Positions 53,566 to 62,286 are shown, counted from the first letter of the stretch. The stretch: 64,000 nucleotides of DNA from Polaribacter sp. (GCF_039939415.1 NZ_JBDVJE010000071.1:6182-70181); one strand, 5' to 3'. The notes: generated by a model not told the origin, from the sequence alone. Program-made: numbers and translations.

Positions 53566-54879
53566 ATGGAATTAAAAGATAAATTATTATCATCATATGT
53601 AGCTTTTGAAAATCGTGTAGATACAAATACTGATGTACATGAAATTCGTTCTAAAGCGCTTAAAAGTTTCGAAGATTTAGGATTTCCTACAAAGAAATTA
53701 GAAGCTTGGAAATACACTTCTTTAAACTCAGTTTTAAAAGAAGATTACAGTTTATTTCCTAACAAAGGTGTTGCTGTAGAATTAGCAGATGTAAAAAAGT
53801 ATTTTATACATGATATAGACACTTACAAAGTTGTTTTTATTGATGGAAAATATAGCCCGTTTTTATCTGAAACTACACATGAAAATATTGATGTGTGTTT
53901 AATGTCTGCTGCATTAAGTAAACCAAAATACAAAGCTGTAATTGATAACTACTTTAATAAAATAGCAAAACAAGACAATTTAACATCGTTAAATACGGCA
54001 TTTGCAACAGAAGGAGCTTACATAAATATTCCTAGAAATATTGAAGTAGAAAAGCCAATTCAAATTATAAATTTTACAACAGGTTCTGAGGCTGCAACAA
54101 TGTTGCAACCAAGAAATTTAATTGTTGTTGGCGAAAATTCTCATGTACAAATTATAGAACGTCATCAAAGTTTAACAAGTAATCCTGTTTTAACAAATGC
54201 GGTTACAGAAATATTTGCTGATAAAAGAGCTTTTGTAGACTATTACAAAATTCAGAATGATGATATTAAAGCTTCTTTAGTTGATAATTCTTATGTAGAA
54301 CAACAGTCTAATAGTGTGGTTTCTGTACATACTTTTTCTTTTGGAGGAAATATTACTAGAAACAACTTAAACTTCTTTCAAAAAGGAGAATACATAGATT
54401 CTATTTTAAAAGGAATTACAATTAGCGAAGGAAAGCAACATATAGATCATCACACTTTAGTGCATCATATTACACCAAATTGTGAATCTCATCAAGATTA
54501 TAAAGGGATTTATGATGATAAATCTACAGCTGTTTTTAACGGTAAAGTAATTGTTGAAAAAGAAGCTCAGAAAACAAATGCTTATCAGCAAAACAATAAT
54601 GTTTTAATGAGTGACAAAGCAACAATTAACGCTAAACCTCAACTAGAAATTTTTGCAGATGATGTAAAATGTTCTCACGGTTGTACTATTGGTCAGTTAG
54701 ATGATAATGCTTTATTTTACATGCAACAACGTGGAATTCCGAAAAAAGAAGGGAAAGCATTATTAATGTTTGCTTTTGCAAATACAGTTTTAGAAAGCGT
54801 TAAAATACCAGAGGTAAAGTCTAGAATTACAAAAATAATTGCCAAAAAATTAGGTGTAGATATTGGTTTCGATCTTTAG
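53566..54879 (+). CDS. sufD: Fe-S assembly protein SufD
   Basis: EAWKYT, KPQLEIFADDVKCSHG. Confidence 0.96.
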   Translation: MELKDKLLSSYVAFENRVDTNTDVHEIRSKALKSFEDLGFPTKKLEAWKYTSLNSVLKEDYSLFPNKGVAVELADVKKYFIHDIDTYKVVFIDGKYSPFLSETTHENIDVCLMSAALSKPKYKAVIDNYFNKIAKQDNLTSLNTAFATEGAYINIPRNIEVEKPIQIINFTTGSEAATMLQPRNLIVVGENSHVQIIERHQSLTSNPVLTNAVTEIFADKRAFVDYYKIQNDDIKASLVDNSYVEQQSNSVVSVHTFSFGGNITRNNLNFFQKGEYIDSILKGITISEGKQHIDHHTLVHHITPNCESHQDYKGIYDDKSTAVFNGKVIVEKEAQKTNAYQQNNNVLMSDKATINAKPQLEIFADDVKCSHGCTIGQLDDNALFYMQQRGIPKKEGKALLMFAFANTVLESVKIPEVKSRITKIIAKKLGVDIGFDL

Positions 54880-54896
54880 AAACATTTACTTATATA

Positions 54897-54933
54897 AAAC
54901 ATAAAACCACGCTAAAAGCGTGGTTTTATGTTT
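54897..54933. terminator. Bidirectional terminator between sufD and TPR gene
   Basis: AAACATAAAACCACGCT-AAA-AGCGTGGTTTTATGTTT perfect 17-bp stem. Confidence 0.85.
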
Positions 54934-54939
54934 ATAGCA

Positions 54940-55464
54940 TTATTTTTTCTTCTCCTTGTTTTTAGATAATTTTACTTTCTTTTTTTTAGGCATTTTCTCT
55001 TTAATACGATCTTTTTCTATATTAATATCAGCCATAAAATCTGTATTATAAGCATACTCTTTTGCCTTTTTTATAAAAGTTAGTGCATCTTTATACTCTT
55101 TTAACTGTTCAAACAAAATGGCTTTCTTTAAATATAAAACACCTTTGTCTGATCCTTTTATGGTTAATGCAAAATCGATAAACTCATCTACTTCTTTAAA
55201 ATCTTCATTCCATAAAAGTGTATTTATATACGGTATATATACTTCAAAGGCATGAATGTTTTCTGCTAAAGCTTGTTTAAAATAAACAATTGCTTCTTCA
55301 TATTTATATAACTTTTCTGAATGTACTCTTCCCATTAAAGTTAAAGCCATTGTGTTTTTTTCATCATAAGACAAGGCATAATTCAATGCTTCCATTACTT
55401 CTTCTAAATCGTAAGGATAGTTTTCTAATGCTTTAAACACGTAGTTGTTTACTAATGTTCCCAT
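54940..55464 (-). CDS. TPR protein; probable start 55464
   Basis: Helical repeats (ALNYALSYD, AIVYFKQAL, KDALTFIKKA); upstream ATG at 55491 lies inside a REP palindrome. Confidence 0.75.
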   Translation of the reverse strand: MGTLVNNYVFKALENYPYDLEEVMEALNYALSYDEKNTMALTLMGRVHSEKLYKYEEAIVYFKQALAENIHAFEVYIPYINTLLWNEDFKEVDEFIDFALTIKGSDKGVLYLKKAILFEQLKEYKDALTFIKKAKEYAYNTDFMADINIEKDRIKEKMPKKKKVKLSKNKEKKK

Positions 55465-55485
55465 TTTGTTTTTGCTTTTTACGTT

Positions 55486-55544
55486 TGTCATTTCGAGCGA
55501 AGTCGAGAAATCTCAAAGACCTTTCGACTTCGCTCAAGGTGACA
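55486..55544. repeat. REP-like palindrome
   Basis: TGTCA..GAGCGAAGTCGA-GAAATCT..-TCGACTTCGCTC..TGACA. Confidence 0.85.
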
Positions 55545-55553
55545 TTCGTGCTA

Positions 55554-56243
55554 TTATTCTAATTGTTTTCGTAAATCATTTTTTAATTGATTTCTCTTAT
55601 TCTTAAATGATTTACTTTTTTTAATTTGTTTAAAATCACTTCCTGTAAAAACTCTAATAGGATTTCCTCTTTCTAATTTTTGATGATTTTCCCATTGATT
55701 TTTTAACTGCTCTTTTGCTTGGTCTACATTAAAATTGATAACCTTTTCTTGTAATCTTTTAATCGCTATTTTTTTATTTTGATGTTGAGATCTGCTATCC
55801 ATAACCAACACTTGTAAACCTGTTGTATGTTTTGCTCTTATTGCAGAACTTACTTTGTTTACATGCTGACCTCCTGCTCCTGAACTTCTTATTGCTTGAA
55901 ATTGAATTTCATTTTCATTGATTTGTATTGTTGATGAATCTTGAATTTCAAAACAGCCAATAAACCAGTTTTTACGTTTGTGTAATTTTCTAAATGTTGA
56001 TATACCAATCCATTGAATTGTACCCAACCAATTTGTTAAAAAATCAGCAAGATGGTTTCCTTTTAATTGTATGCTTACAGATTGCACTGTGCCATTTTGG
56101 AGTCCGTTTTCTTTATGAAGAATTGTATACTCAACCTTATTGGTTATCAATTCTTTTAGAAATATTTTTAACACTTTTGCAACTACAAAGGCACATTCTA
56201 AAGGTCCTTTTCCTGCTGATATTTGTATTATTTTAGTTTTCAT
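55554..56243 (-). CDS. prfH: Peptide chain release factor H
   Basis: QISAGKGPLEC, GTIQWIG.S.FR..HKRKNWF, SGAGGQHVNK; directly after rtcB. Confidence 0.93.
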   Translation of the reverse strand: MKTKIIQISAGKGPLECAFVVAKVLKIFLKELITNKVEYTILHKENGLQNGTVQSVSIQLKGNHLADFLTNWLGTIQWIGISTFRKLHKRKNWFIGCFEIQDSSTIQINENEIQFQAIRSSGAGGQHVNKVSSAIRAKHTTGLQVLVMDSRSQHQNKKIAIKRLQEKVINFNVDQAKEQLKNQWENHQKLERGNPIRVFTGSDFKQIKKSKSFKNKRNQLKNDLRKQLE

Positions 56244-56261
56244 TTTTAAATGTTCTTTTTA

Positions 56262-56341
56262 CTGTTATTTTGACTTTATGGAGAAATCTTATTATTTAAA
56301 AAAGATTTTTCGACTTCACCTTGTTTCGCTCAAAATGACAG
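56262..56341. repeat. Degenerate REP-like palindrome
   Basis: CTGTTATTTTGA..GAGAAATCT..AGATTTTTCGACTTC..TCGCTCAAAATGACAG. Confidence 0.7.
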
Positions 56342-56358
56342 ATTTATTTTAATTTGCT

Positions 56359-56436
56359 TGCGTTAAGGATTGAAACGACATCCTTTTTGCTTTTTCTGCA
56401 AAAAGATATAGTGTAAAGCCTGTTAAAACGCCCAAA
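56359..56436 (+). ncRNA. Dispersed structured element, copy 3 (Flavo-1-like)
   Basis: TGCGTTAAGGATTGAAA..ATCCTTTT..AAAAGATATAGTGTAAAGCC..AACGCCCAAA. Confidence 0.6.
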
Positions 56437-56438
56437 TA

Positions 56439-57830
56439 CTAGGTATCCATTCTTACAATTTTTGGTGTAAATGTGCCTAACACTTCTACCAATTCTTGCT
56501 GATTTGCCATCACTTTTTTGATGTTTTTGTAAGCCATTGGTGCTTCATCAATTCCACCTCCAATAAGTGTAACATCGTTTATTTTTAGTTGATGTTTTAC
56601 ATCACTTTTTGTGAATTTTTCTTTACACTTTCTACGAGAATGCTTTCTACCTGCTCCATGAGAAGCTGATTGCAAACTTTCTTGATTTCCTAAACCACGA
56701 ACTATAAAACCTGGAGCTGTCATAGAACCTGGAATAATACCCAACGTGTTTTTTTGTGCTGGAGTTGCTCCTTTTCTATGCACAATACACTCTTTGCCAT
56801 TTACAGTTTCTTTCCACGCAAAATTGTGATGATTCTCTATTTTCACAATTGGTTTCGCACCCAATTCTTTGGCAATTCTATCGTGAATATTATCATGACA
56901 AGCTTTAGCATAATCGCCAGCTAAATTCATTGCCAACCAATATTCTTGTCCATCATGCGTGTTTAAATCTAACCAAGCCAAATGCTGTACATTTTTTGGT
57001 AAATGACATTGTTTTGTTGCCAAATACGTGTAATGTTTTGCAATATTTGCACCTAAACCTCTAGAACCACTATGTGATAAAACACCAATATAATCACCAA
57101 TTTTTAATCCAAATTCATTGTTTTCTTCTGTAATTGAAACTGTACCAAATTCTACAAAATGATTTCCGCTACCAGAAGTTCCTAATTGTTTATACGCTTT
57201 GTCTTTTAAGCGTTTTATTAGCGGAATTTCTGTAAACTCATCTCTATAAAATATTTCATGATCTTGTTTTTTATCGTGCGTTTCTCGCATTCCGAATTTT
57301 GTGTGATTCTTTAAAATATTTTCATATTGATGTTGTTTTCCTTTTAAAAAAGAAACTGGAATCGGGTAAATTGTTAAACACATTCTACAACCAATATCTA
57401 CACCTACTCCATAAGGAATTACTGCATTTTCTGTGGCTAAAACTCCGCCAATTGGCAAACCATAACCATAATGTGCATCTGGCATTAAAGCTCCTTGCAC
57501 AGCAATTGGTAATTTTAATGCATCGTACAATTGAAACTTTGCTTGTTCATCTATTTCATTTTCGCCATAAATAGAAAATGGAACTCTTGTATTTTTTAAT
57601 TGATGCATTTTTACTTCTACAGGTTTTACTAAACCTTCTGCAACTTTACCCCAAATGGCATTTCCTTGAAACTTTTCTGGTGCTAAAAGCACTTCTTTTG
57701 CTTCTTCTAAAATGCGTTCTTTCTTTTCTCTTTTTCTGTATCTATTAATTTGCCCTAATGCAATATTGATACTATTATTCTTTGGAAAGCCTAATTTAAT
57801 TAGGTCTTTTCCTTTTAATTTATTTCCCAT
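56439..57830 (-). CDS. rtcB: RtcB family RNA ligase (RtcB2 type, PrfH-linked)
   Basis: PDAH, VDIGCRM, GSGNHF, SHSGSRG, NHHNFA, SHGAGR. Confidence 0.95.
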   Translation of the reverse strand: MGNKLKGKDLIKLGFPKNNSINIALGQINRYRKREKKERILEEAKEVLLAPEKFQGNAIWGKVAEGLVKPVEVKMHQLKNTRVPFSIYGENEIDEQAKFQLYDALKLPIAVQGALMPDAHYGYGLPIGGVLATENAVIPYGVGVDIGCRMCLTIYPIPVSFLKGKQHQYENILKNHTKFGMRETHDKKQDHEIFYRDEFTEIPLIKRLKDKAYKQLGTSGSGNHFVEFGTVSITEENNEFGLKIGDYIGVLSHSGSRGLGANIAKHYTYLATKQCHLPKNVQHLAWLDLNTHDGQEYWLAMNLAGDYAKACHDNIHDRIAKELGAKPIVKIENHHNFAWKETVNGKECIVHRKGATPAQKNTLGIIPGSMTAPGFIVRGLGNQESLQSASHGAGRKHSRRKCKEKFTKSDVKHQLKINDVTLIGGGIDEAPMAYKNIKKVMANQQELVEVLGTFTPKIVRMDT

Positions 57831-57884
57831 GATATTTTATCTTTTATTAAGAGAAGATGATATTTACTCTTATCACCTTCTCTT

Positions 57885-59240
57885 TTATTTACTTAACAGG
57901 ATTGCTTTGATAATGAAAAATATAATCCAAAAAACGATTCTTACTATTGTATCGAAATTTTCATCTGTATTTACATGATTAGCATTTTCAATTGCTGCTC
58001 CATTCATATAATTTTCATATTCTACAACATCATAACTTCCCTTTATTTGTGAATTATTAACCCACAAATCTATCATCTGTATAGATTTTTCATTTGGTTC
58101 TTCATTAAACTTGGCTTTTGCTTCAATAATTTTCTTTTCACTTAAACCAACTTCAATAGTTGCCAAACGTTCTGTCAATTTATTTTCAGAAACTCTTTGT
58201 AAAGAAAAAATTGTACTTACACCTTCACTACAATCTTCATCGTATTCTGCAACACAGTGATGCATTGCATTACCTTCATCAAAAAGAGCTATAGAGTTTA
58301 ATAATTCAACTGTTTTATATACTACCTTCTTCCCATTTTCTGTTTTTTCTTGATATAAGGGTGTAATTCCAGAAGCTTCCCATCTTAATATTTCACCAAT
58401 ATTACTCGCATACACATTCTTCTCCCATTCTAAAGCTTGTTGTAACAATGCTCTTTGCTTTCTATTTTTCATAGAGAACTTTTTATTTTCTCTATACTTA
58501 AACATTAAAAACTCCAAGATTTTGTCCAACTCTTTTCCATCTATATTCGTTTCTTTTGAAAAAAAATGAACTACGGTTTCCCAGAACTTTTCTTCGCTTT
58601 CATTAATATTAGATAGTTTAGAAAAACCAATAAGTTTAGCCGTTTTAAAAGAAGCTCCAAAACCTAAGGCTTGCACAAAACGTAATGTTTGATTCGGTTC
58701 AAAATAGTTAGGAGCATTTTTAAATTCGTGAGCCATTTTACTAGTTAAACGTATTGGCATTTGAGACAATTCTTTTACACTTTTACCTTTACCCAATTGT
58801 AAATACCAAAGCATAAATTTTTTATCGACTTCAAAAAAAGTGTTTTCTAAAAATACTGGTGTTTCATAAATAGCAAAACTATGTCTAATTAAAGATCTTA
58901 ATTGCTCTTCTTTGTCAAAACCTTTACGCTCCCAACTTTCTATATTTCTAACCAATTGATTACCAAAAGAACTAATATTGTGTAAAACTTCTACACTTTT
59001 ATAATCTCTAAGCAAACCATAACATTTTTGATTGTATGCATGGATTAATAACCTTTTAAAAGTTGCTCTTTTCCATATGTATTTCTTCTTACTTGTTTTT
59101 CCAAAAAACTCAAGAAGCATCGTTTCTATAGTACCTTTATAACGTGTTGATTTGTTATTTGATTTATCTATTTTCTCAACAAGTTTTAAAAAACTATTTT
59201 CACGGATATTTATATTTTGTGTTTTCCAATTTGTTTTCAT
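57885..59240 (-). CDS. PcfJ domain-containing protein
   Basis: C-terminal LFDEGNAMHHCVAEY..CSEG.STIFSL..LATIEV..AKAKFN typical of PcfJ. Confidence 0.8.
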   Translation of the reverse strand: MKTNWKTQNINIRENSFLKLVEKIDKSNNKSTRYKGTIETMLLEFFGKTSKKKYIWKRATFKRLLIHAYNQKCYGLLRDYKSVEVLHNISSFGNQLVRNIESWERKGFDKEEQLRSLIRHSFAIYETPVFLENTFFEVDKKFMLWYLQLGKGKSVKELSQMPIRLTSKMAHEFKNAPNYFEPNQTLRFVQALGFGASFKTAKLIGFSKLSNINESEEKFWETVVHFFSKETNIDGKELDKILEFLMFKYRENKKFSMKNRKQRALLQQALEWEKNVYASNIGEILRWEASGITPLYQEKTENGKKVVYKTVELLNSIALFDEGNAMHHCVAEYDEDCSEGVSTIFSLQRVSENKLTERLATIEVGLSEKKIIEAKAKFNEEPNEKSIQMIDLWVNNSQIKGSYDVVEYENYMNGAAIENANHVNTDENFDTIVRIVFWIIFFIIKAILLSK

Positions 59241-59448
59241 TTTAAAGTTCTTTACTAGATTATTGCCTACGTAAAGCCACTTAACATCTAAGCCAATTTT
59301 TATTGACCTCTTAATTTTGGCAAATACTTATTCATTCAGAAAACTCGTGATAATTGTGAGCATCTGTTTGTAAATTCCATTTATAACAATGAAATTCTCA
59401 AATTTCTGATTTTCAAAATTTTACTTAAACTACTTTTTGGAAAGGCAT

Positions 59449-59481
59449 AAAAAAAATCCGAAACTTTAATTTAGCTTCGGA
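59449..59481 (-). terminator. Attenuator terminator in leader of pcfJ-rtcB-prfH operon
   Basis: Minus strand TCCGAAGC-N9-GTTTCGGA-T8, lying between promoter and first gene. Confidence 0.8.
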
Positions 59482-59505
59482 CTTTTCATATATAATAGCA
59501 TATAA

Positions 59506-59592
59506 CTATTTGTAATGTTGAAAGTCGCGAAGTAAACAATAAAAAGAACCTAGTTCTCTTTGTATGTTTTTTGTTAATTGATGATTGAACAT
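59506..59592 (-). CDS. Putative leader peptide (28 aa)
   Basis: MFNHQLTKNIQRELGSFYCLLRDFQHYK*, between promoter and terminator; its LRDF codons are complementary to the terminator 5' arm. Confidence 0.6.
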   Translation of the reverse strand: MFNHQLTKNIQRELGSFYCLLRDFQHYK

Positions 59593-59649
59593 TGTACTTC
59601 GTTGTTTATGCTGAATTATTTCAGCAATTTTTGTTGCTTTATTGCGATG

Positions 59650-59681
59650 CAAACCTAAAACAGATTTTTGAATTACACAAA
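59650..59681 (-). promoter_or_regulatory. Bacteroidetes primary-sigma promoter of RtcB operon
   Basis: TTTG (59678-59681), 20-nt spacer, TAGGTTTG (59650-59657) on minus strand. Confidence 0.75.
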
Positions 59682-59856
59682 TAAAATTTTAAATTAACTT
59701 AATGATTATCAGGTTTTTATATTATTTTTAGACAATAAAATACCTGTCCGCTTTTAAGCAGAAATAGTGAGTTTAGATAACTCTTTGAAGTTGTGATATG
59801 TAACTAAAAACTACACTTTGATTTGGCATTTATTAATTTTTGAAAAAAATTATAAA

Positions 59857-59890
59857 AAAAACGTCCAAAAAATGAATTTTGGACGTTTTT
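59857..59890 (-). terminator. Terminator after serine hydrolase
   Basis: AAAAACGTCCAAAA...TTTTGGACGTTTTT. Confidence 0.8.
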
Positions 59891-60030
59891 ACTATTTTAT
59901 TTAAAGTTACTTACTAGAATATATACTTCAATAGTCGCAAAAAGCGTCCGTTTTTTATGTGATTTCTATATATATTCATTCGTTTAATCCTTTTTTATTA
60001 TCTTATTTTGAGTTGCAAAGATGCAAAAAA

Positions 60031-61350
60031 TTAATTTATAGATTCCAAAACTCCTTTCAGAAACTCATTTTCATCAAAATTAGTCAATCCAAAACGTACA
60101 ATTACCATTTCTTGATCTGGTAAAACATAGACTCTTTGTCCTTGATAACCATCTGCATAATACATATTTTTAGGTACATCTTTAAAATTGCCATTTGCAT
60201 TTAACCAGAACTGTGCTCCGTAAATTCCTTTAGAAGTTGGTGTTGGTGTTGTAACATATTTTACCCATTCTTTGGTTAATAAATGTGCTCCATTCCAATT
60301 TCCGTTTTTAAGGTATAACAGCCCAAATTTTGCCCAATCTCTTGTGGTTGCCCAAGAATAAGAAGAAGCTACGTAATTTCCGCTTAAATCTGCTTCTAAA
60401 ATCATAGAGTTCATTCCTATTTTATCAATAAAATCTGTATACCAAAAATCTAAATATTCTTGATGTGTTTTAAACTGACTTCTTAAAATACCAGACAATA
60501 AATTAGTAGTTCCAGAAGAATAATTAAAAGTTTCATTGGGTTTGCCAACCAAAGGCTTGTTTTCTTGCATTTTGGTCATGTCTCTTTCTAAAAATAACAT
60601 TTTAGTAGCATCAGAAATTTCATCATAATTTTCATCCCATTCTAAACCAGAATTCATTTGTAATAAATTATGAATAGTAATGTTTTTACGTTCATCATTT
60701 TGCCAAGAATCTATTGGAGCTTTATCTTGAATATTCAATTTACCTTGATGCTGCATCACTCCAAAAACAGTACTTAACAAACTTTTGGTCATAGACCATC
60801 CTAATATTTTAGAATCTTTATTAAAACCTCTATTGTATTTTTCTGCAATAATTTGATCTTTATAAACTACTAAAACAGCTCTTGTTTTATTTTTTTCTTG
60901 AAACAAAGAATCTATAGCTATATTTAAGTTCTTATAATTAATAGTACTAAAAACAGAATCTTTTTGTTCTCCATTTCCATACGGAAAAGGTGTTCTATAA
61001 TCTGGCTTTAATCTATTTGGTATTAAGTACGAAGCAGTTTCATCTTCTTCTGTTAAAGTTAAAACAGAACCTAAACCTTTTCTAATAATTGCTTTTCTAG
61101 TTAACAAACTATATACAGAAGATGTAGCTGCTTTTTTATCTACCTCAATTTCATCTGAAGCTAAATTTACAGGCGAAAAATTATTGTCGGTTGCATCTGT
61201 AAACTCTAAAGTTCTTCTAGCAACAAATACAGAAGATGCAGTATTTTTTGCAGAATAACCTGCTAAAATATTCAGTTTTGGGTAATTGTAGATTACAGCA
61301 ATTGTAATAAAAACAAGAAGTAAAAGTAAAATTCGTTTTAAAATTTTCAT
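60031..61350 (-). CDS. Serine hydrolase, beta-lactamase-like family
   Basis: WSMTKS (SxxK), FNYSSG (YxS), YADGYQGQ. Confidence 0.9.
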   Translation of the reverse strand: MKILKRILLLLLVFITIAVIYNYPKLNILAGYSAKNTASSVFVARRTLEFTDATDNNFSPVNLASDEIEVDKKAATSSVYSLLTRKAIIRKGLGSVLTLTEEDETASYLIPNRLKPDYRTPFPYGNGEQKDSVFSTINYKNLNIAIDSLFQEKNKTRAVLVVYKDQIIAEKYNRGFNKDSKILGWSMTKSLLSTVFGVMQHQGKLNIQDKAPIDSWQNDERKNITIHNLLQMNSGLEWDENYDEISDATKMLFLERDMTKMQENKPLVGKPNETFNYSSGTTNLLSGILRSQFKTHQEYLDFWYTDFIDKIGMNSMILEADLSGNYVASSYSWATTRDWAKFGLLYLKNGNWNGAHLLTKEWVKYVTTPTPTSKGIYGAQFWLNANGNFKDVPKNMYYADGYQGQRVYVLPDQEMVIVRFGLTNFDENEFLKGVLESIN

Positions 61351-61500
61351 CTAATAAAGGTTTGCTGTTGTAAAAATAAGAATTAAAAGCTCAACTTTTT
61401 TATATCAGTATAAATACCTAAAAGTAAAAAAAGGGGTTTCTATGTAAAATATAACTGATTGATTTTATTAGTTTTAACCCAAAACATCAAGCCAAATAAA

Positions 61501-62286
61501 ATGACTACACCAACTACAAAGACAGATACAACAAAACCAAAATCATCTTCAACAAAACCAACTACCACAAAAGTAAGTCCTGGAATTTCTGAAGATGTAA
61601 TTACTGAGTTAAGTAGAGAAATAAATAATATGTTGTCTTTTGCAATTTTTAACGGAATTATGGTAAACACGGAAGTAAATTCATTGATACAAAATAGTAA
61701 TGTAGACGATTTGATAAATGCACATAACCTTTTGTGTAAAAATGTAGCTCCTGCAACACCAAAATCTATTGGATATACTCAAAAATTAAATAAGGATGGA
61801 AATGGAAAATCTATCTTTAAAAAACTTCCACTATTAAGAAATTTAGTTTTATTGGCACTTGCTTTTTTGATTGCTTATATAGCTACAGGAATGTCTTCTC
61901 AAGTAAATAACGACTCTCTAGATAAAGGAATGATGAATAATAGTGGAATTCCTTTGTTACTTAATATTACTTATTTAAGCTCAGTTGCAGGTTTAGGAGT
62001 ATTGTTTTTTTTATTAAAAGAAGTAAGTATTTCCTTAAAAAAAGGGTCATTAATTCCAGAAAATGCAATTGGCTATTTATCTCAAATTATTTTAGGAATT
62101 ATTTCTGGATTAATCATGTCTGAAATCATATCATTTTATACAACAGATCCAAAACAAATTAATTTATTTAATAAAAGTATTCTTGCTTTAGTTGGTGGGT
62201 TCTCTTCAGATGCTATTTTTAGCATTTTACAAGGTATTATCAACAGAATTAAGAGCATTTTTATATCACAAAACGCCATAAACTAA
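61501..62286 (+). CDS. Hypothetical 4-TM membrane protein; probable start 61501
   Basis: T/K-rich N-tail, soluble domain, TMs with AGLG, LGIISG, ALVGGFSSD. Confidence 0.75.
   Translation: MTTPTTKTDTTKPKSSSTKPTTTKVSPGISEDVITELSREINNMLSFAIFNGIMVNTEVNSLIQNSNVDDLINAHNLLCKNVAPATPKSIGYTQKLNKDGNGKSIFKKLPLLRNLVLLALAFLIAYIATGMSSQVNNDSLDKGMMNNSGIPLLLNITYLSSVAGLGVLFFLLKEVSISLKKGSLIPENAIGYLSQIILGIISGLIMSEIISFYTTDPKQINLFNKSILALVGGFSSDAIFSILQGIINRIKSIFISQNAIN

Follow-up and report, generated by a model that had tools for sequence, protein, structure and literature searches.

A probable ribosome-dependent transcription attenuator upstream of the pcfJ-rtcB-prfH ribosome-repair operon in Polaribacter and other Flavobacteriaceae

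Listeria hflXr carries a stall-sensing leader ORF with a terminator and an antiterminator, and belongs to the antibiotic-responsive class of such switches. Ribosomes that have been cut in the decoding centre of the 16S rRNA are rescued and resealed by RtcB2 and PrfH (PMC9304027, PMC9223846, PMC13166195), and a PrfH-CT subfamily has been defined for which a dual rescue, of damaged as well as of intact stalled ribosomes, is reported (bioRxiv 10.1101/2025.01.09.632186). The rtcB-prfH gene pair has been described as translationally coupled (PMC1586002). The induction of RtcB2-PrfH repair is barely addressed in the literature searched, where artificial induction was used. In Pseudomonas aeruginosa, the PA5471.1 leader is reported to control armZ (PA5471, RtcB-like) and PA5470 (prfH) by stalling-sensitive attenuation (review PMC12057347), a mechanism that still needs confirmation according to the same review. 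In E. coli and Salmonella, rtcBA is controlled by the sigma-54 activator RtcR (PMC12606134), and leader-peptide attenuation is reported in Flavobacterium (PMC9723704). A preliminary description of the locus studied here took such regulation to be undescribed for this operon. This holds for the Flavobacteriaceae, as no description of the leader in Bacteroidota was found in the literature searched, including RtcB2-PrfH and F. psychrophilum transcriptome papers, but not for P. aeruginosa, given PA5471.1 (PMC12057347); the surprise is lessened by the fact that the same logic has already been reported for the armZ-prfH operon.

The window analysed is a stretch of 64,000 nt (64 kb) from Polaribacter sp., in which the intergenic region at 60030-59241, bearing the elements read here on the minus strand, precedes a unit of four minus-strand genes. 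The first gene after the putative attenuator encodes a PcfJ-domain protein (57885..59240; Pfam PF14284, 1.6e-12), and is followed by rtcB, encoding an RtcB2-type RNA ligase (56439..57830; Pfam PF01139, 1e-80), by prfH of the long PrfH-CT subfamily (55554..56243; Pfam RF-1 domain) and by the gene of a TPR protein, which closes the unit (54940..55491; Pfam TPR hits). The translated PrfH has 229 aa and a basic, Lys/Arg-rich C-terminal tail. These domain assignments bear out the pcfJ-RtcB-PrfH order that had been proposed downstream of the leader and add the TPR protein to it; pcfJ is an accessory gene found only in some lineages. On the other side, the upstream beta-lactamase-family gene ends in a bidirectional terminator at 59890-59857. 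The genome has a single rtcB and a single leader, and a regular expression for the full layout finds this locus only; a weak model match to a second leader on contig C18 was rejected, as it is only a terminator behind a coding gene. The 195-nt spacer between rtcB and prfH, which in relatives measures only ~8-115 nt, holds a Flavo-1 RNA motif (RF01705, 54 bits; 56351-56429 on the plus strand, antisense to the operon), the sole Rfam match above the gathering score within 54000-62000. Flavo-1 was rejected as a component of the system, since its 63 matches in this genome, of which 42 exceed the Rfam cut-off, show it to be a dispersed repeat, and the copy appears to have been inserted here between rtcB and prfH.

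Upstream of pcfJ, a Bacteroidota sigma-A promoter is recognised at 59681-59650 on the minus strand, with TTTG (-33), an N20 spacer and TAGGTTTG (-7). It is the only full match to TTTG-N19-21-TAnnTTTG on both strands of the window, and it is near-invariant in relatives of many genera. As the -7 box lies at -12 to -5 in Flavobacterium psychrophilum (PMC9723704), transcription would, by analogy, start near 59645, giving a terminated leader of ~197 nt. The leader ORF has 28 codons plus stop (MFNHQLTKNIQRELGSFYCLLRDFQHYK; 59592-59506, with the ATG at 59592 and the TAG at 59508-59506) and is surrounded or overlapped by four minus-strand segments that are able to pair. Segment 1, CGAAGU (59601-59596), lies 4 nt upstream of the AUG. 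Segment 2, CUUCG-C-GACUUU (CTTCGCGACTTT; CUUCGNGACUU; 59532-59521), covers codons 21-24, L-R-D-F, and can alternatively pair with segment 1 or segment 3. Segment 3, AAAGUCCGAAGC (AAGUCCGAAG; 59485-59474), has a double role, as the antiterminator's 3' arm and as the terminator's 5' arm, and segment 4, GUUUCGGA plus U8 (59464-59449), provides the terminator 3' arm and the U-tract. Within the ORF, an inner hairpin, AAAGAGAAC-UAG-GUUCUUUUU (59561-59541), is followed by a U-rich stretch.

The terminator consists of TCCGAAGC (59481-59474), a loop (59473-59465), GUUUCGGA (59464-59457) and U8 (59456-59449), and termination is predicted from the 8-bp, G+C-containing stem TCCGAAGC/GTTTCGGA with its 9-nt loop and T8; the terminator scanner, with a loop limit of 8, missed it for this reason. 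In the antiterminator, CTTCGCGACTTT (59532-59521) pairs with AAAGTCCGAAG (59485-59475) over 11 bp with one bulged C, and the stop codon is separated from the terminator by 24-27 nt. The positions given for the promoter, ORF, terminator and antiterminator in the preliminary description proved exact in the minus-strand reading, and its competing pair of terminator and antiterminator stands, but it missed the fourth partner, CGAAGU at 59601-59596. Since this segment 1, as the 5' arm of an anti-antiterminator, pairs with the same CUUCG of segment 2, the switch would be OFF without translation. On sequence grounds, segments 1 to 4 constitute a four-segment trp-like layout, and we consider that the leader most likely attenuates transcription of the pcfJ-rtcB-prfH-TPR operon in cis and in a ribosome-dependent manner. 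The features expected of a ribosome-mediated attenuator, as which the locus had first been described, are borne out by the conserved ORF, the covarying helices, the linkage to the operon and the co-occurrence with prfH, each of which is set out below.

The unit is conserved upstream of rtcB2-prfH and on the same strand in ~40 Flavobacteriaceae genomes of ~25 genera. When 61 related genomes were searched by BLAST, 12 of them, all from the same genus, contained the region, and conservation ended at the U-tract (query position 415, window position 59446). A covariance model built from these 12 leaders was searched against 401 genomes across the family and gave full-length matches in ~27 further genomes of different genera. 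Some BLAST hits of the promoter block in relatives had looked like extra copies; they were rejected as separate elements since one of them, L010, when read, was the same kind of leader with a diverged ORF. Conservation and covariation in relatives, which the preliminary description had named as a way to check the proposal, are thus found in ~40 genomes of ~25 genera, with compensatory changes.

The 206-nt leader folds with -45 kcal/mol, compared with -25.4 +/- 3.7 for its shuffles (z = -5.3), so that the fold check proposed at the outset came out in favour of a structured leader, and the three alternative folds are near-isoenergetic (medians -16.1, -16.6 and -15.4 kcal/mol). RNAalifold, run on a MAFFT alignment, returns three helices, namely the 1:2 helix, in which segment 1 pairs with the (A)CUUCG of codons 20-22, the inner hairpin and the terminator. 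The antiterminator helix is paired at 96.5% in 12 sequences (MAFFT alignment) and at 90.1% in a 42-row alignment that was not fitted to it; in the latter, none of 500 shuffles attains the observed values and slid controls drop to 48-56%. Its covariation score is reached by 0-3 of 500 shuffles over both alignments. Its pair types (GC 26 / AU 6 / UA 4; AU 34 / GC 4; CG 25 / UA 6 / UG 3) include the outermost pair, G-C in 26 rows, A-U in six and U-A in four, whose 3' partner also covaries within the terminator. In the raw sequences, GAC/GUC is replaced by GAU/AUC, or by GGU/ACC together with GGGU in segment 4, which is a three-way change.

The helices of the terminated state covary as well. In the 1:2 helix (pair counts CG 33 / UA 5; UG 14 / CG 10 / UA 8 / AU 4), CAG in place of CGN at codon 22 comes with CUGAAG in place of ACGAAG in segment 1, and this CUGAAG covaries with CUUCAG of segment 2 in four homologues (L026, L030, L033 and L036). 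All six pairs of the inner hairpin show compensatory changes across genera (GAAC/GUUC, GCAC/GUGC, GAC/GUC, ACAC/GUGU), and the terminator helix is 98.9% paired with four covarying pairs. Taken together as the terminated-state structure, these three helices are paired at 96.3% and contain 13 doubly changed pairs, counts which are inflated because alignment A3 was fitted to this structure; the antiterminator counts are unaffected. Antiterminator and terminator are mutually exclusive, as had been claimed, and both covary.

This high conservation of the RNA structures, the coincidence of nearly all conserved codons with paired segments, and a conserved hairpin and palindrome upstream of the promoter, which hint at further regulators, would also suit an RNA-only or protein-binding switch, whose state depends on a ligand or on an RNA-binding protein (an operon product in a feedback loop, for instance) and in which the ORF is incidental. 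However, in homologues with a G+C content of 25-38%, a frame of 24-28 codons is open in ~38 of 41, from ~25 genera, while the other two frames contain stops, on average 1.8 and 1.2, respectively. An in-frame ATG is found just past segment 1 and 54, 57, 60 or 63 nt before the CTT of segment 2 in 35 homologues (60 nt in 26 cases, 57 in six, 54 in two and 63 in one), which means that the changes in length are all multiples of three, and the AUG adjoining segment 1 is invariant in 12 of the 12 same-genus genomes. Moreover, the leader (59241-59900) has no Rfam match even at E <= 10, as a result of which its motif is a candidate for a new cis-regulatory RNA family. An RNA switch with an incidental ORF is hence unlikely in our view, and these data favour an attenuator that is read by a translating ribosome.

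The N-terminal half of the leader peptide is weakly conserved and its first 12 residues vary freely, and the conserved end reads L-R/Q-D/G/A-F/Y, followed by 2-5 residues to the stop. The four-segment layout, as in the trp, his and leu leaders, and the existence of such leaders in Flavobacterium (PMC9723704) would be compatible with a classical attenuator that senses one amino acid, or the charging of its tRNA, through regulatory codons. Across the homologues, however, the first 20 codons contain no codon runs or conserved clusters, that is, none of the tandem or clustered regulatory codons by which amino-acid attenuators are recognised, and amino-acid sensing was rejected on this basis. The regulated genes, moreover, serve RNA repair and ribosome rescue, not biosynthesis, and we consider this alternative extremely improbable.

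The conserved end could instead act as an arrest peptide, with LRDF(x)2-5 stalling the ribosome near the stop codon, either through a small molecule or through the state of the release factor or PrfH. The C-terminal motif is conserved at 2-5 codons from the stop, and its aromatic residue is kept. Yet a ribosome held on codons 21-28 would mask segment 2 and favour the terminator, so that arrest would turn the rescue operon OFF, a response that is physiologically hard to understand. The motif also coincides with segments that are under a three-way RNA constraint. Furthermore, it is absent from one homologue, L028, and an arrest peptide appears very unlikely to us.

The homologue L028 (1501-1657, genome G439) has an extra base before segment 2 and reads ...LASGLLQ before the stop instead of ...LRDF..., while its ORF keeps 26 codons and the same stop position just past segment 2. 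It may be a real variant, showing that the leader can do without the peptide motif, or may result from a sequencing error. We would argue from this frame change with a preserved ORF length that the travel of the ribosome outweighs the identity of the peptide. It counts against the attenuator reading, in turn, that the conserved LRDF is accounted for about equally well by RNA pairing and by selection on the peptide, two constraints that are inseparable at the level of the sequence.

In 27 genomes, the leader is followed by an RtcB2 orthologue with 70-89% identity, and every match in a genome with an RtcB2 orthologue precedes that gene on the same strand, irrespective of which accessory gene comes next. 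Leader and rtcB are 83-143 nt apart in 12 genomes; in the others, the gap measures 201 nt (one genome), ~730-816 nt (five), ~1580-1620 nt (three) or 2251 nt (one). In three genomes (G002, G023, G009), rtcB starts within ~100 nt of the terminator and pcfJ is absent, and in two (G017, G020) an ORF of ~223-232 aa, for which no Pfam match was found in the two genomes checked, stands between the leader and rtcB; in six Polaribacter and Tenacibaculum genomes, pcfJ lies 180-228 nt downstream of the leader. PrfH is encoded in 29 of the 401 genomes, our own genome being counted, and the element adjoins the operon in 24 of the other 28. It went undetected in G093, G207, G347 and G417, the last of which has prfH at a contig end. 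In two of the 24 genomes, from two genera, the leader is placed directly before prfH, with no rtcB2 in between (G124 contig 4, 162201-163159, and G311 contig 4, 490523-491706; gaps of 117 and 344 nt), which suggests that the attenuator follows prfH as well as rtcB.

This linkage bears on the possibility that the leader constitutes a gene of its own, encoding a 28-aa micro-protein or a ~200-nt small RNA, and that the operon has a separate promoter downstream of it. Promoter, ORF and terminator do make up a complete unit, the C-terminal L-R-x-F/Y is conserved, with the F/Y exchange falling where pairing imposes no constraint, and a conserved weak -7-like block lies between the terminator and pcfJ. 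But a free-standing gene would need no antiterminator, yet the antiterminator helix covaries; the N-terminal 12 residues are barely conserved, and the frame-shifted L028 keeps the length and the stop position of the ORF and not the motif of the peptide. In addition, the short gaps before rtcB leave 83-143 nt in 12 genomes, and no TTTG was seen in three of these gaps, in three relatives, when the alignment was read by eye. Accessory genes, finally, have always been inserted after the terminator and never before the promoter. A separate micro-protein or small-RNA gene is thus decidedly improbable.

Between the terminator and pcfJ, no exact -7 box is present in our own window. Two near-invariant blocks are found in this spacer in Polaribacter and Tenacibaculum, at 59250-59285 and 59318-59329 on the minus strand. 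A GTATTTGCCAAA block is invariant among the pcfJ-bearing genomes and resembles the -7 box with two mismatches, and, judged by its sequence, it might be a weak second promoter before pcfJ. The second spacer block forms a hairpin, CUUUAC-(U/G)AG...CU(A/C)-GUAAAG, which ends ~14 nt before the pcfJ AUG and has one compensatory change. Both blocks could be peculiar to the pcfJ insertion, one serving as a weak promoter and the other acting on translation or stability.

Further elements lie around the promoter. About 20 genera share a conserved hairpin, UCUGC-UUAAAA-GCGGA with CAGGnAUUnUAUUG behind it, which in the window is found at 59747-59762 (-), ~100 nt before the transcription start of the leader. 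Covariation affects its top pairs (C-G / U-A / A-U), and on the operon strand a U-G wobble has been preserved, which points to an RNA structure, belonging to a transcript that would start further upstream. A palindrome yTGATnnnTCAr, here CTGATAATCA (59703-59712, minus strand), is centred ~62 nt upstream of the putative start, and its distance from the promoter is the same in the many genera that share it. It may thus be a transcription-factor site and provide a second layer of control. Within the leader, a small hairpin UGCUGAAAUAAUUCAGCA (59609-59626, minus strand) lies between the conserved 5' end, GCAUCGCAAUAAAGCAACAA, and segment 1; since it is restricted to some close relatives and occupies a spot of variable length, it is probably dispensable.

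A diverged sister class of leaders, with 24-25 codons and peptides ending in LRAY or LRDY, was also found (L039 1-1656, L046 1-1652 and others in G453, G126, G268, G284, G311, G409 and G085 contig 9). These leaders precede a different RNA-repair cluster, whose first gene encodes a TPR protein that is 49% identical to the one at 54940-55491 of the window (two loci), followed by a 107-aa ORF in one locus and by a metallophosphoesterase in the other. An RtcB paralog with ~34% identity is encoded 1.5-5.3 kb downstream of the sister leaders, and in PrfH-negative genomes at least five of the eight strongest matches lie 1.5-5.3 kb upstream of this paralog. The sister leaders carry another palindrome, TTAATAC-N3-GTATTAA. 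Their position before the TPR/RtcB-paralog cluster suggests that the same kind of switch gates two RNA-repair clusters.

From these data, we infer an RNA 3' end at ~59449, the direction of regulation and the inducing signal as follows. Transcription would start near 59645, at the only recognisable promoter. With no ribosome on the leader, the 1:2 helix would form and then the 3:4 helix, and transcription would stop at ~59449 (OFF). During normal translation, the ribosome would cross segment 2 and reach the stop codon 2-5 codons further on, after which segment 2 would be masked or paired again with segment 1, allowing 3:4 to form, and the operon would remain OFF. The preliminary description had assumed that a ribosome which completes the leader masks the antiterminator; this is only partly upheld, as in the 28-codon version no more than the 3' end of segment 2 would lie under the terminating ribosome, and so the OFF state after normal translation probably depends in addition on the 1:2 helix forming anew behind it. 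If the ribosome were instead held in approximately the first 15 codons, 1:2 would be blocked and segment 2 exposed, and the latter would capture the emerging segment 3, prevent the terminator and permit read-through into the repair genes (ON). The 24-27-nt spacing from the stop codon to the terminator would keep a terminating ribosome off segment 3, and the inner hairpin with its U-rich sequence might, speculatively, act as an RNA polymerase pause that synchronises the ribosome.

Such a switch would report a general failure of elongation, caused by damaged 16S rRNA, ribosome-targeting compounds or non-productive complexes, and would not report the shortage of a single amino acid. We judge it rather likely that the signal is general ribosome stalling or damage. 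The dual rescue by PrfH-CT, of damaged and of intact stalled ribosomes, fits a general stall sensor of this kind. Given the attenuator across the Flavobacteriaceae, the prediction is that the operon is induced by the stalled ribosomes themselves, and the leader would offer a compact reporter of translation damage in a phylum with few such tools. A wider reading, which we put forward tentatively and with less confidence, is that the leader senses damaged ribosomes directly and that, together with the sister class and the shared hairpin and palindrome, it defines a translation-damage regulon of the Flavobacteriaceae that replaces RtcR-type control. Ribosomes with a cleaved 16S rRNA, or otherwise unable to elongate, would initiate on the leader and stall in approximately the first 15 codons, thereby opening the antiterminator; once repaired, ribosomes would read the whole leader and return the operon to the OFF state. 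If this were true, the substrate of the repair system would be its inducer.

As in the case of the trp, his, leu, thr and pheA attenuators, the leader combines a promoter, a short ORF, the 1:2, 2:3 and 3:4 helices and a U-tract terminator, and, as in the classical amino-acid attenuators, the position of the ribosome would select the fold, with the untranslated leader presumably giving termination. Contrary to the classical attenuators, it has no runs of regulatory codons, its segment 1 lies 5' of the AUG and not inside the ORF, and the genes behind it repair RNA, while theirs make amino acids. With B. subtilis vmlR (PMC9226507) and streptococcal msrD (PMC10314930), it shares a leader ORF coupled to a terminator/antiterminator, and the logic by which a stalled ribosome induces a ribosome-acting factor is the one proposed here. 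The vmlR/msrD type, however, answers to particular drug classes via nascent-peptide contexts, none of which is evident here, and the genes behind the present leader are an RNA ligase and a release-factor homologue.

As for RtcR control, an RtcB ligase is induced upon damage to the translation apparatus there (PMC12606134) and would be so here, but RtcR is a protein activator of transcription initiation, with no leader ORF and no attenuator. In the case of PA5471.1, a short translated leader and terminator structures likewise precede an RtcB-like gene plus prfH, and the increased read-through with impaired or stalled ribosomes that is reported there (PMC12057347) is what we propose for the present leader. 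The Flavobacteriaceae belong to another phylum, and ArmZ of P. aeruginosa has gained a role as an anti-repressor of MexZ. The leader described here also differs from PA5471.1 by its four-segment trp-like layout, by a segment 1 located in the translation initiation region and by a covariation that extends across ~25 genera. We expect the two leaders to be non-homologous, their likeness consisting in an analogy of function and in the type of the downstream genes.
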